DNA from: Fulvitalea axinellae
Lineage (GTDB): Bacteria; Bacteroidota; Bacteroidia; Cytophagales; Cyclobacteriaceae
NCBI RefSeq assembly: GCF_036492835.1
Contig: NZ_AP025314.1
Span: 2,210,010-2,274,009 of the forward strand
Direction: 5' to 3'
DNA length: 64,000 nt
Below, piece by piece: positions 56,167 to 64,000 of the stretch. Below the pieces are notes generated by a model that saw only the letters and a list, made by a program, of their open reading frames with translations, was not told where the DNA came from and made no database searches. The translations under genes were made by a program, and so were the position numbers. The stretch's first letter is position 1; every line of letters starts with the position of its first letter.

Positions 56167-57513
56167 ATGACCGACACTATTAACTATCAATACGCCGTAG
56201 CCTCGGCATTGCGTAAAACCGCCGAGGCCGACGAACTTTTGCTTTCGGAATACAGCGAACTGGAACGGAAAACCGGAGCGCCGTGTTTTTTCTGGGGAAA
56301 ATTGGCCGATCCGTATATCACCGCCCGGTGCCTGATTACTCTGTCGAAGGTAGTGCAGTCCAGCTTTAACCTTTCGCCTTTTCAGCTCGCGTTATTGAAA
56401 GACCCGGTGGTGACGGCAGGAAACGATACGATACGGTTCGAAGGTTTTTCGCATTGCGCCGGGGTTTACGCGCGTGTAGATGTATTGCCGGATGGCCATG
56501 ACGGAGAGTTTTTGGACCAAGGCACTACCAATGTCGATTTTAACCAACCCATGATTGGTGCTTTGGGCAGTGTGCGCCGAAAAGAGGATGTGATGTTGGC
56601 CGTAGGGCAAAAATCGGTGAGCGTGGAGACGTCCGGCGCCAAGGTGGTTGAGCGGAAAGTGCCTTTGCCCACAAAGTGGATAAAAGGAATGACCACTGTC
56701 CAGCTGTATCTAGCCGATAGCGAGGAACGTTTCCGCCTTAACCGTTTGCAGGCTTTACAACTTTTCAGAAGCGTTCCGAAAAGCAAAGTGAAAACGGATT
56801 ATTTTTTGGGAATGAGAGGCACCCGCCCGGTCTTGTCGCCCGCCAAGATGCCCGACGGCGTTTGCGTGGGTGGTGTCCATCGTTTGCGCCTTGTCGAAGG
56901 CCTTTTGCCTTTGGTTGACGAGGTCCGGGTTTTCGCTCATAAAGACATGCAGTCCACTACTTGGCAATTGTATTTTGGGCCGGTTCGCTTCAATATCACG
57001 CTTTCCCGTGATGCTTGGCGGGGCTTCTCGGGCGAGGGTGCCGCTTTGGAATCTTTGATGGAAGATGTTCCCGAAACATTGATCCGCCGTTTCGACAATT
57101 ACAGCTTTGCGAACCAAAGTTTCAACGCCACGATGACCGCTATCCAAACCGATGTCGATTTTGCGAAAATCGATCAATTGACGGCGAGGCTGTCGGCGAT
57201 GGGGCTTTTGGGCTTTGATTTGGATGATAACGCTTTTTACTATCGTCGCCTTCCATTCAAAATGGAGCGAATCATGAGCTTGAACCCGAGGGCGAAAGGC
57301 GCCGAAAAACTCTTGGAAAAAGGCAAAGTAACGATCGTAAGCAAAGACCCGGATAGGGTGGAGGCCAGGGTTGAGGGAAGCGGTGTCCGCCACACAATCG
57401 TGATTAAGGGGGAGAAAGCCCAATGTACCTGCGCTTGGTATGCCAAAAACCAAGGGGAACGGGGAGCTTGCAAGCATGTGCTGGCTGTGAAAAAGATGTT
57501 AAACACGAAGTAA
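56167..57513 (+). CDS. SWIM zinc-finger domain protein
   Basis: The ORF starts at 56128, but the probable start is MTDTINYQ at 56167. A C-terminal CTCAWYAKNQGERGACKHVLAV (CxCx13CxH) is the canonical SWIM motif. The N-terminal approx. 400 aa are uncharacterised. Confidence 0.75.
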   Translation: MTDTINYQYAVASALRKTAEADELLLSEYSELERKTGAPCFFWGKLADPYITARCLITLSKVVQSSFNLSPFQLALLKDPVVTAGNDTIRFEGFSHCAGVYARVDVLPDGHDGEFLDQGTTNVDFNQPMIGALGSVRRKEDVMLAVGQKSVSVETSGAKVVERKVPLPTKWIKGMTTVQLYLADSEERFRLNRLQALQLFRSVPKSKVKTDYFLGMRGTRPVLSPAKMPDGVCVGGVHRLRLVEGLLPLVDEVRVFAHKDMQSTTWQLYFGPVRFNITLSRDAWRGFSGEGAALESLMEDVPETLIRRFDNYSFANQSFNATMTAIQTDVDFAKIDQLTARLSAMGLLGFDLDDNAFYYRRLPFKMERIMSLNPRAKGAEKLLEKGKVTIVSKDPDRVEARVEGSGVRHTIVIKGEKAQCTCAWYAKNQGERGACKHVLAVKKMLNTK

Positions 57514-57526
57514 GAAAGCCGGAGAG

Positions 57527-63289: not shown

Positions 63290-63339
63290 GCTTTGGGAAT
63301 AAGCCTTTTTCGTTTTTTCATTTAAACTCAAAAACAGAA

Positions 63340-64000
63340 ATGAGCACCGTTTTACACGCTGATCTGAGCCATTTTATAGAGCAGGGAATGTTTGACCAAA
63401 CTATTGAACTGTTCAAAACCCTTGGTGATAAACAGCGAACCGGCTTAAGAAGCTTGGTGAAAAAATTAGTCAAGTATTATTCGGAGTACGAACAAGAAGA
63501 AGGCACCAACAGGTGGAGCTCCCGCGGTACGCCAGAGCAATGGCGGGTTTTGCACATCGCTTCCCTTTTTTGCTTTTCCAAGCGGGATATCAAGCGGATG
63601 CGGACATGGGGATATAAGATTCAGGATGTAGAAAGATTATTGGACTTTTACGTGCCCGAAGGTTTCGGTGAAATACTGAACGAGGATGCCCAAGATGAGC
63701 AGTTGCGCTATGGTATTACCTACCCGTGGATGTTGAGTTTGCGTGATCGTGGCATATTGGATCCAATTCCGGAAATGATTGTGAGGACTTTGCTAAAGCT
63801 TCCCGAGCCCGAAGGCTTGCGCCTATACCAAAACGGATATGATATGGACAACCTTCGTGAATATCCCGAGATTTTGGGCGGGCATATTTGGCTTTTGTTC
63901 CATTATCCTTCGAATATAAATTTTCATAGATGCCGAACCGAAAAGGGAGAAGACGAGACATGGGTGGATATTTTTCTTCATCTCGTCGAGCGGAAAGATA
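63340..64000 (+). CDS. Large helical protein, paralog 3 of 3 (3' end beyond window)
   Basis: ATG at 63340 (MSTVLHADLSHFIEQGMF...). It is open to the window end and clearly similar to the N-terminus of paralog 2. Confidence 0.65.
   Translation, partial: MSTVLHADLSHFIEQGMFDQTIELFKTLGDKQRTGLRSLVKKLVKYYSEYEQEEGTNRWSSRGTPEQWRVLHIASLFCFSKRDIKRMRTWGYKIQDVERLLDFYVPEGFGEILNEDAQDEQLRYGITYPWMLSLRDRGILDPIPEMIVRTLLKLPEPEGLRLYQNGYDMDNLREYPEILGGHIWLLFHYPSNINFHRCRTEKGEDETWVDIFLHLVERKD

Follow-up and report, generated by a model that had tools for sequence, protein, structure and literature searches.

A SWIM zinc-finger and HEAT/ARM-type gene module of Fulvitalea axinellae with its nearest known kin among the accessory genes of type XIII retrons

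Type XIII retrons and a four-gene run in Fulvitalea

Type XIII retrons, which include the first retrons discovered, Mx162 and Mx65, encode a cluster 114_1 protein that combines a DEDE motif (Dx7[D]x4Ex30-32Dx37E) with a winged helix and a SWIM finger, and a cluster 216 protein that joins a WGR domain to HEAT/ARM repeats (Mestre et al., 2020). Thirteen candidate retrons of this type are listed for Bacteroidota in the SPIRE survey. In C. butyricum, a plasmid-borne bona fide retron of type XIII encodes a 978-aa WGR_XIII protein, a SWIM_XIII protein and the RT (RT_XIII) in this order, the three genes overlapping in one operon. The literature that we searched offered no mechanism for the accessory proteins of these retrons, and the sole published idea that we found on their SWIM protein is an origin from a transposase, put forward in 2020.

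The DNA analyzed here, referred to as the window, is a stretch of 64,000 nt from Fulvitalea axinellae, and all positions are given in its own numbering. At its right-hand end four genes follow one another on the + strand with gaps of 13, 39 and 50 bp. The first of them, FUAX_18030 (56167..57513), starts with an ATG at 56167 and encodes a SWIM protein of 448 aa, as read from the ORF and its translation, which is a 100% match to FUAX_18030. Three large paralogs come next: paralog 1 (FUAX_18040; 57527..60424, +) encodes 965 aa and begins 13 bp past the SWIM gene; paralog 2 (FUAX_18050; 60464..63289, +) begins 39 bp past paralog 1 and encodes 941 aa with a 100% match to FUAX_18050; and paralog 3 (FUAX_18060; 63340..64000, +), 50 bp past paralog 2, leaves the window after the first 220 of its 942 aa, the full length being taken from the protein record of FUAX_18060. 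These ORFs agree with a preliminary description of the same DNA, which had read it as a SWIM gene with three tandem, co-directional paralogs of ~950 aa and the same gaps.

A candidate promoter of the Bacteroidota type (55891..55921, +; TTTG at 55891 and TAGATTTG at 55914), found by a regex scan as a consensus match only, is placed in the 431-nt non-coding gap 5′ of the SWIM gene, the sequence of which is not kept in related loci. A regex scan of the three intergenic gaps within the four-gene run detected no TAnnTTTG box. In a pattern scan, a terminator-like hairpin (63288..63306, +; AGGCTT/AAGCCT plus a T-run) was seen to overlap the stop codon of paralog 2. Since a scan for sigma-70 promoters and terminators gave site numbers in this region that were not above shuffle expectation, the hairpin gives no more than a hint of some separate transcription of paralog 3.

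The SWIM protein and its counterpart in type XIII retrons

The SWIM finger of the Fulvitalea protein lies at residues 413-445 (Pfam, 24.1 bits; cutoff 19.6), within a domain of β-sheet plus helix at residues ~388-447 (57328..57507, +). The motif reads C-T-C-x12-C-K-H, its Cys and His residues being C420, C422, C435 and H437; the preliminary description, right in placing a SWIM finger at the C-terminus, had counted one residue too many both in the protein (449 aa) and in the finger spacing (CxCx13CxH instead of CxCx12CxH). In the predicted model a winged helix-turn-helix occupies residues ~321-360 (57127..57246, +), and an acidic motif nearer the N-terminus, D79-x7-D87-x4-E92-x31-D124-x37-E162 (56401..56652, +), is an exact regex match to the DEDE pattern published for type XIII cluster 114_1. 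All three hallmarks of that cluster (DEDE, winged helix and CxCx12CxH) are present in the protein, which is matched by the PADLOC profile SWIM_XIII with E=7.1e-64 and was aligned by hhalign with the SWIM protein of the C. butyricum retron at a probability of 96.7% (E=3.6e-10), the alignment covering the DEDE region. Among known systems, the Fulvitalea genes are most closely related to the pair of accessory genes in type XIII retrons, a kinship that the preliminary description had missed. The two have in common a SWIM protein homologous over nearly its whole length, a partner of ~950-1000 aa made of helical repeats and carrying a WGR domain in some lineages, and the adjacency or overlap of the two genes; moreover, type XIII loci can carry two HEAT/ARM genes, much as Fulvitalea has several copies.

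The two systems also differ in several respects. In Fulvitalea the SWIM gene precedes the solenoid genes, whereas the retron has the order solenoid-SWIM-RT; the SWIM protein measures 448 aa in the former and 602 aa in the latter, and no sequence homology beyond the WGR domain was detected between the DUF6493/DUF7824/DUF7825 partner and WGR_XIII. PADLOC returned no match for the window paralogs. Given that hhalign, too, detected no homology between the DUF6493 family and the 978-aa retron partner (probability 0.6%), the large subunits correspond only in their size and fold class, in the fusion to WGR and in the position of their genes. Further, a type XIII retron has an RT with an msr/msd next to it, and no RT was found in the window DNA up to 64000 or in about 20 related loci. 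Pfam and PADLOC detected no RVT_1/RT among the genes between 45974 and 64000, where the window ends inside paralog 3, or among the scanned neighbours in related loci; a regex search for YxDD-type RT ORFs was negative for the whole window and for ten related loci (L001-L010); and no RT was present among the annotated neighbours of the other paired loci (L011-L021). As a positive control, the RT of the C. butyricum retron was detected at once. An Rfam search of the window and four related loci, made without a dedicated model of the type XIII ncRNA, gave no retron RNA; only tRNAs came up in the related loci.

It is conceivable that the module belongs to a type XIII retron that has been split up or survives as a remnant, with the RT and msr/msd somewhere else in the genome or a little past position 64000 and the module still working with msDNA. 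That the SWIM protein is strongly homologous to SWIM_XIII, that type XIII retrons are reported in Bacteroidota (the 13 SPIRE candidates) and that the window ends inside paralog 3, with the downstream genes outside view, would all suit such an arrangement. We nevertheless consider it improbable, because no RT is found in the roughly 20 related loci from three phyla that were inspected with flanks of 7-10 kb, because purifying selection acts on the two genes even where no RT accompanies them (see below), and because a true retron has its three genes overlapping in a single operon.

A predicted clamp-like core

Residues ~40-280 of the SWIM protein (56284..57006, +) are predicted to form a PCNA-like sliding-clamp protomer with two clamp domains, the two-domain protomer fold being evident in a structural model built on a shallow alignment of 29 sequences at 64-73% identity. 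At least 3400 homologs of the protein were found, the best 120 of them with 64-73% identity along the whole protein. An NCBIfam search gave sub-threshold noise only. A sequence and profile search of the PDB with the SWIM protein gave no match, and the likeness to sliding clamps (PCNA, 9-1-1, bacterial β clamp, viral processivity factors) comes with an identity of ~9%, sequence-level similarity being absent. The Fulvitalea protein further departs from those clamps in that its clamp-like part is fused to the winged helix-turn-helix and SWIM domains and in that it possesses an invariant set of acidic and His/Cys-rich residues, of which D79, E92, D124 and E162 are invariant among the 29 SWIM-protein homologs; we know of no canonical sliding clamp with such a set. 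No AAA+ clamp-loader gene adjoins the module, either here or in the paired loci. The protein may form a ring and bind DNA.

MULE transposases likewise end in SWIM fingers. Together with the presence and invariance of the published DEDE spacing, this agrees with the 2020 proposal, made for the retron XIII SWIM protein from its DEDE motif and SWIM finger, that it is a domesticated DDE/Mutator-like transposase. In the model, however, the acidic residues sit within the first clamp-like domain, and no transposase or RNase-H-like fold appears among the structural neighbours listed, which makes a transposase descent extremely improbable in our judgment; the prediction for the conserved core of this protein is a PCNA-like clamp and not a transposase.

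Diverged solenoid partners and the E. coli yeh cluster

Paralog 1 (57527..60424, +) consists of DUF6493 (residues 1-313; 203 bits), DUF7824 (419-687; 185 bits) and DUF7825 (706-961; 177 bits) and is a HEAT/ARM solenoid; the same three-domain architecture was given by Pfam for paralog 2, at 188, 140 and 131 bits, respectively (cutoffs 25-27.5 bits in all cases). The in-window part of paralog 3 matches DUF6493 (Pfam, 130 bits, E=1.9e-37), and all three domains are among the precomputed domains of the full protein. The paralogs align end to end, with 28% identity between paralogs 1 and 2 (E=2e-104), 29% between paralogs 1 and 3 (E=3e-120) and 43% between paralogs 2 and 3, the last pair reaching 46-53% in the N-terminal third; the preliminary description had been sound in reading them as strongly diverged paralogs, of which the second and third are about half identical N-terminally. 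The nucleotide similarity among the three is almost nil, which points to old duplications and not to an assembly artefact, and which, at 28-43% amino acid identity, means that synonymous sites among the window paralogs are saturated. Paralog 1 is predicted to fold as an all-alpha protein, and its structural neighbours are of the HEAT/ARM type only, with no enzymes, in keeping with the earlier remark that no catalytic motif is visible. A PDB sequence search with the partner gave weak matches to designed armadillo proteins only, and its resemblance to eukaryotic/archaeal HEAT-ARM adaptors (MMS19, Integrator subunit 4, importins, β-catenin) is one of fold class, at 8-17% identity in partial alignments; a function beyond that of a ‘binding scaffold’ is not justified by this likeness.

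Conservation within the partner family is highest in the segment LPLLSTPTNDPHW (59252..59290, +; aa 576-588 of paralog 1), a non-helical loop in the model, its equivalent in paralog 2 lying at 62183..62221. Invariant or near-invariant columns are L576, P577, L579, P582, H584, P586 and W588, followed by P591, and a strict regex found a motif of the LPLLSTPTNDPHW type in 74 of 147 family representatives. Since word-indexed searches for homologs gave only 3-4 matches, whether the query was paralog 2 or an alignment of 16 sequences, the family was sized by an exhaustive search of representatives, which gave 2316 clusters at 50% identity. In some lineages the partner has an N-terminal WGR domain, which the window paralogs are without; the Flavobacterium homologs carry one that matches PADLOC WGR_XIII. 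We found no mention of DUF6493 in the literature that we searched, and the SWIM/DUF6493 system is uncharacterized, as the preliminary description had surmised of a conserved system.

The preliminary description had likened the locus to the yehQ/yehI-molR neighbourhood of E. coli, where the cluster yehF-yehH-yehI-yehL-yehM-yehP-yehQ encodes WGR, DUF4132/MolR, MoxR AAA+, DUF5682, VWA and SWIM proteins. In both systems a protein with a SWIM finger is accompanied by helical proteins of very large size that are associated with WGR domains, within the family in the case of the Fulvitalea partner, and the function of the yeh cluster is likewise uncharacterized. In addition, a 1690-aa DUF5724-DUF4132-DUF7737 protein adjoins the module in Flavobacterium loci, and one neighbour in a related locus matches bpX4, a domain of the MoxR-vWA ternary system. 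However, the large yeh protein is of the DUF4132 family whereas the Fulvitalea partner is composed of DUF6493, DUF7824 and DUF7825, and no paralog contains the DUF4132 that had been expected of it; neither BLASTP nor hhalign (probability 0.13%) found any similarity of YehI to the large proteins. YehQ aligned with the SWIM protein over the finger of ~50 residues only (hhalign probability 18%), has that finger near its N-terminus (residues 56-88 of 614) and not at the C-terminus as in Fulvitalea, and gave no match to SWIM_XIII. The MoxR-type AAA+ and VWA genes named as possible further partners were absent from the 10 kb upstream in the window and from the paired loci. With different families, no similarity between the large proteins and no MoxR/VWA genes, the comparison with yehQ/yehI is an analogy; that the locus belongs to the yehQ/yehI-molR/MoxR/VWA type of system is very improbable, and this membership was rejected on the Pfam, BLASTP and hhalign results.

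Distribution, selection and a possible role

The pairing of a SWIM protein with a very large all-alpha partner, to which the preliminary description had drawn attention, is specific: the two genes were found together in 8 of the 10 loci retrieved via the large protein and in 7 of 8 independent loci retrieved via the SWIM protein. In Bacteroidota, Alphaproteobacteria and Actinomycetota alike they lie side by side or overlap, and the distance matrix of the SWIM protein is correlated with that of the partner (r=0.82, Mantel p about 4e-4). The copy number of the partner varies from 1 to 3 between genomes, triplication being rare. The flanking genes vary from genome to genome, most chromosomal neighbourhoods consisting of ordinary metabolic or regulatory genes and not of defence islands, and a search of 50,697 phage records turned up no homolog. 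Individual loci have other surroundings: the module is on a plasmid in Chondrinema, in a Chitinophaga MAG it is part of a tRNA-integrase island with DpdE/DpdF/DrmD-like helicases, its neighbours in Pontibacter are RadC/ArdC/Fic/HipA, a DNA methylase lies near it on a Streptomyces plasmid, and one related locus has Gabija genes. Plasmids, an integrase island and defence-gene neighbours are hints of a mobility or defence context.

Across eight genera the SWIM protein retains 63-79% identity (about 71%), whereas the partner, at about 34% across genera, evolves faster. In Flavobacterium, where dN/dS was measurable, the ratio was 0.02-0.03 for the SWIM gene and 0.07-0.11 for the partner, which showed no signal of positive selection and no 50-codon window above a pN/pS of 0.33; the near-identical strains of Chryseolinea and Flavihumibacter had identical sequences and were uninformative for dN/dS. 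Both genes are under purifying selection, and the module is thus not in decay. The paralogs had been described as diversifying, which the low dN/dS of the partner and the lack of a positive-selection signal in Flavobacterium do not bear out.

These data can be read in terms of a housekeeping or regulatory factor of DNA metabolism, in which a clamp-SWIM platform would serve chromosome repair, replication restart or transcription control, with the solenoids as ordinary scaffolds and no conflict with foreign DNA involved. A SWIM protein conserved much like core DNA-metabolism proteins (63-79% identity, dN/dS 0.02-0.03), a partner under plain purifying selection, the ordinary chromosomal genes around most loci, the absence of the family from the 50,697 phage records and the vertical-inheritance signal noted for type XIII retrons (Mestre et al.) are all compatible with such a factor. 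We hold this reading to be possible though on the whole unlikely, given that the flanking genes are never conserved, that the module also resides on plasmids and in an integrase island and jumps between phyla as a unit, that the partner ranges from one to three copies between genomes, and that the only characterized relatives belong to retrons, which are classed as defence systems.

We lean toward the view that the Fulvitalea genes constitute a self-contained two-protein module, an RT-less counterpart of the type XIII accessory pair, for which surveillance of or defence against foreign DNA is the most likely role and, at the same time, the least certain step of the argument. The SWIM protein and the solenoid would form a complex in which the clamp-like and winged-helix parts engage DNA, while the solenoid, held by the SWIM finger and/or the clamp surface, would act as a variable binding surface that selects a ligand or target. 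In retrons this ligand might be the RT/msDNA, and in Fulvitalea another nucleic-acid or protein cue. The solenoid gene of Fulvitalea was duplicated twice long ago, so that three alternative specificity subunits would share a single clamp-SWIM protein. A bolder proposal, rather unlikely as a whole, is that SWIM_XIII-type proteins are a new class of bacterial sliding-clamp-like DNA sensor/effector, a PCNA-like protomer that oligomerizes on DNA or, in type XIII retrons, on msDNA; their invariant D-E-D-E/His cluster would be catalytic or would bind a ligand in a metal-dependent manner, the HEAT/ARM partners would be ATP-independent loaders or specificity subunits, and the triplication would be a three-way expansion of target specificity.

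The SWIM_XIII-type family is far more widespread as an RT-less two-gene module, with at least 3400 close SWIM homologs and 2316 partner clusters in at least three phyla, on chromosomes and plasmids, and its two subunits differ greatly in evolutionary rate. If the clamp prediction is true, the retron accessory module would be a DNA-encircling or DNA-tracking device, the question of msDNA in type XIII retrons would become directly testable, and so would the role of a bacterial HEAT/ARM family of ~950 aa that now goes by DUF names only. The sensor/effector reading, if true, would provide a mechanistic handle for type XIII retrons, which are now without one. The Fulvitalea locus itself is a natural experiment in which one conserved subunit is combined with three diverged partners.

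Gene organization and the solenoid family

Reanalysis of the window, a part of the chromosome of Fulvitalea axinellae (Bacteroidota, Cytophagales), placed the four co-directional ORFs exactly where the preliminary description had put them: a SWIM gene (56167..57513), paralog 1 (57527..60424; 965 aa), paralog 2 (60464..63289; 941 aa) and paralog 3 (63340 to the window end; 942 aa at full length in the database), separated by 13, 39 and 50 bp. The SWIM protein, paralog 1 and paralog 2 are 100% identical to FUAX_18030, FUAX_18040 and FUAX_18050, respectively. The SWIM protein with its finger was likewise present, with a length of 448 aa, not 449, and a finger spacing of CxCx12CxH in place of the CxCx13CxH first read. 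By Pfam, all three paralogs share the architecture DUF6493 + DUF7824 + DUF7825, far over threshold, and DUF4132, which had been expected, is absent from each of them. The paralog pairs are 28, 29 and 43% identical end to end (E 2e-104 to 1e-240). Given that their nucleotide sequences retain almost no recognisable similarity, the duplications must be ancient, and an assembly artefact as the source of the three copies is ruled out.

An exhaustive search showed that the large HEAT/ARM-type solenoid proteins form a large, very diverse family, with 2316 cluster representatives (clustering at 50% identity), of which 632 have E <1e-30. Most are 900-1010 aa long; a minority are ~1030-1080 aa, and, among these long members, those inspected have a WGR domain at the N-terminus. 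The most conserved feature of the family is a non-helical loop, LPLLxxPTxxPxW, which we speculate could be a docking site onto the SWIM subunit. Tandem duplication of the solenoid gene occurred in at least three independent events, giving three copies in the window and pairs in Rapidithrix (52% identity) and in one Flavobacterium (83-84%). Every other locus examined holds a single copy and, thus, the triplication is unusual. In Rapidithrix thailandica the two tandem paralogs (L002, 6806..12859) lie in a locus without a SWIM gene, and a lone SWIM gene, whose product is 69% identical to that of the window, lies on a separate contig beside a TssD/Hcp-containing cluster (L012, 10001..11347); this is the only split pair among the loci examined. 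A DUF6493-family gene in a Bacteroides ovatus MAG (L003, 9992..12796) has no SWIM gene within 10 kb and is flanked by a histidine-kinase-like gene and fragments of TonB-dependent receptors.

The genes within 10 kb upstream of the module encode AraC regulators, an SDR, an ADP-ribosylglycohydrolase and a BNR protein. The ADP-ribosylglycohydrolase gene overlaps an AraC-type regulator gene 3-4 kb 5′ of the SWIM gene (51664..53632, minus strand, for the two), and it is not kept beside the module in other genomes. Further upstream, a low-GC stretch (38400..45000; 0.39-0.44) of small ORFs without Pfam match contains an IS200-like Y1 transposase fragment (43072..43626, minus strand) and an HTH_38 ORF (44077..44679, minus strand), and could be the scar of a mobile element, some 11 kb from the module. 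Another large uncharacterised ATPase pair occupies 30906..38295 (plus strand): a 729-aa ORF without Pfam match, then a 1668-aa protein in which DUF3686 (‘ATPase involved in DNA repair’, E=1e-183) and DUF7902 are joined by an AAA domain at the C-terminus, where GC at 36-38 kb is 0.58 against about 0.45 around it.

Linkage and evolution of the SWIM-solenoid module

The SWIM gene adjoins the solenoid gene in eight of the ten loci found from the solenoid side, and a search from the SWIM side returned the same adjacency in seven of eight independent loci, with spacing from overlap to a gap of 12 bp; the conserved clamp-like/winged-helix/SWIM protein is genetically locked to the HEAT/ARM solenoid. 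The adjacency was seen in Cytophagales, Sphingobacteriales, Chitinophagales and Flavobacteriales, as well as on an Asticcacaulis plasmid (Alphaproteobacteria) and a Streptomyces linear plasmid, and the order is SWIM to solenoid in all loci but those of Flavobacterium. Flanking genes are conserved in none of the loci examined, and the module moves between phyla and between genomic contexts, which include ordinary chromosomal genes, a Rep3/ParA plasmid, a RadC/ArdC/Fic/HipA patch and a tRNA-integrase island with DUF2779 and DpdE/DpdF/DrmD-like helicases. On that island, from a Chitinophaga MAG (L004, 7073..22630), a tRNA and a tyrosine integrase are followed by the SWIM gene, the DUF6493 protein, a DUF2779/RNase_H_2 protein, a 1728-aa DEAD helicase with DUF559 and a 960-aa SNF2 helicase; the neighbours match PADLOC DpdE, DpdF and DrmD, and the module comes first in the cargo of an island bearing Dpd/DISARM-like genes. 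Strong Gabija matches (GajA E=2e-175, GajB E=4e-151) occur near the module in one locus, probably L005 of Flavobacterium (14431..17880).

Across eight genera, identity ranges over 63-79% for the SWIM protein (mean 70.7%) and 27-44% for its partner (mean 34.2%). Their distance matrices are correlated (r=0.82, Mantel p about 4e-4) and, therefore, the two genes move and diverge in step. For Flavobacterium, in which dS can be measured, omega was 0.022-0.032 for the SWIM gene, 0.068-0.11 for the partner and 0.15 between tandem solenoid duplicates, and pN/pS exceeded 0.33 in no 50-codon window. Both genes are thus under purifying selection, the SWIM protein exceptionally constrained and the solenoid ordinary to fast, and these Flavobacterium genes gave no sign of diversifying selection; the paralogs had earlier been described as diversifying. 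In every Flavobacterium pair (L005-L010), dS was unequal between the adjoining SWIM and solenoid genes (for instance 0.35 vs 0.89 and 0.75 vs 1.23), for which codon-usage constraint, saturation or recombination inside the module are possible causes.

The locus does not belong with the E. coli YehQ/YehI-MoxR-VWA system, to which it had been likened: the defining features of that system were looked for and not found here. Two closely related, and hence not independent, Flavobacterium loci (L006, 13933..19005, and L010, 14948..20020, both minus strand) carry a convergent gene for a 1690-aa MolR-like DUF5724-DUF4132-DUF7737 protein directly after the SWIM gene, so that DUF4132-kind and DUF6493-kind giants can adjoin. 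A third member of this protein family was present among the scanned neighbours, and one neighbour in L001-L010 matches ‘MoxR-vWA-beta-propeller ternary system domain bpX4’.

Predicted clamp fold and kinship with type XIII retrons

The sole Pfam match of the SWIM protein is its C-terminal SWIM domain, and no Pfam family covers residues 1-410. The protein matches PADLOC SWIM_XIII (E=7e-64), the model for an accessory protein of type XIII retrons. Proteins of retron XIII cluster 114_1 combine a ‘DEDE’ motif (Dx7[D]x4Ex30-32Dx37E) with a winged helix and, at the C-terminus, a SWIM finger of the form CxCx12CxH; type XIII retrons usually have a preceding ‘WGR-like + HEAT/ARM repeat’ protein, and some hold two HEAT/ARM genes (Mestre et al., 2020, PMC7736814). 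In the window protein the finger spacing is identical and the DEDE motif exact (D79, D87, E92, D124 and E162), with D79, E92, D124 and E162 invariant in 29 homologs. Besides the four SWIM ligands, C40, C55, H96, C97 and H111, near the acidic motif, are also invariant across these homologs; they may form a second metal site in the predicted clamp-like domain.

An AlphaFold2 model built from the alignment of the 29 homologs (pLDDT 75.9, pTM 0.74; residues ~40-280 mostly >80) was compared using Foldseek, and the top 50 matches, each at probability 1.00, were without exception sliding clamps; TM, normalised to PCNA, reached 0.68. Given this predicted fold, the DEDE residues would sit within the first clamp-like domain. 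A 2020 proposal derived a transposase origin of the SWIM protein from the DEDE residues; no RNase-H-like neighbour was among the matches listed. Since SWIM_XIII aligns across the clamp region, the prediction should extend to retron-encoded SWIM proteins, and our literature search found no paper connecting a clamp fold with SWIM proteins or with retron XIII.

As positive control we used a bona fide type XIII retron from a megaplasmid of Clostridium butyricum. Its three genes overlap one another and encode proteins of 978 aa (WGR_XIII, E=3e-18) and 602 aa (SWIM_XIII, E=8e-177) and a reverse transcriptase (RT_XIII, E=1e-159). Comparison using hhalign aligned the window SWIM family with the retron SWIM protein (probability 96.7%, residues 76-179), and detected no homology between the DUF6493 family and the 978-aa protein (probability 0.6%). 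Type XIII retrons are served by a SWIM protein homologous to this one and by a large helical-repeat partner analogous to the solenoid; the two large partners are matched on size, on fold class, on the WGR fusion and on gene position. In the Flavobacterium loci, as in the retron, a WGR-fused solenoid gene precedes the SWIM gene. No reverse transcriptase was found in the window (read to 64000) or beside the pair among about 20 related loci (ten via the large protein, six genomes via the SWIM protein and two plasmids of other phyla), using Pfam and PADLOC on 79 neighbouring ORFs, a six-frame YxDD/NAxxH regex, and precomputed or deposited annotation. In addition, Rfam scans of the window and of four related loci gave no match to a retron RNA. 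Because it is without a reverse transcriptase as far as 64000, the locus is not a retron; the most fitting label is a new variant, lacking the RT, of the accessory module of type XIII retrons, built from Pfam-named, uncharacterised families. The analysis confirms the original observation and gives partial support to its interpretation.

Proposed role of the module

We propose that the SWIM protein and the solenoid form a complex in which the clamp-like and winged-helix domains would bind or encircle DNA and the solenoid, aided by WGR where present, would recognise a target or ligand. The invariant acidic and His/Cys residues could serve metal binding or catalysis, and a single clamp-SWIM subunit may use the three Fulvitalea paralogs as alternative specificity subunits. 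In view of the kinship with retrons and of the island and plasmid contexts met occasionally, a role in defence or surveillance is most likely. Most module contexts are ordinary genes and the conservation of the SWIM protein resembles that of core proteins, and the module may instead serve housekeeping DNA metabolism. The locus stands out for its predicted clamp fold and because the family is broad and conserved. The module gives a handle on type XIII retrons, and the Fulvitalea axinellae genome offers a natural one-to-three subunit arrangement.
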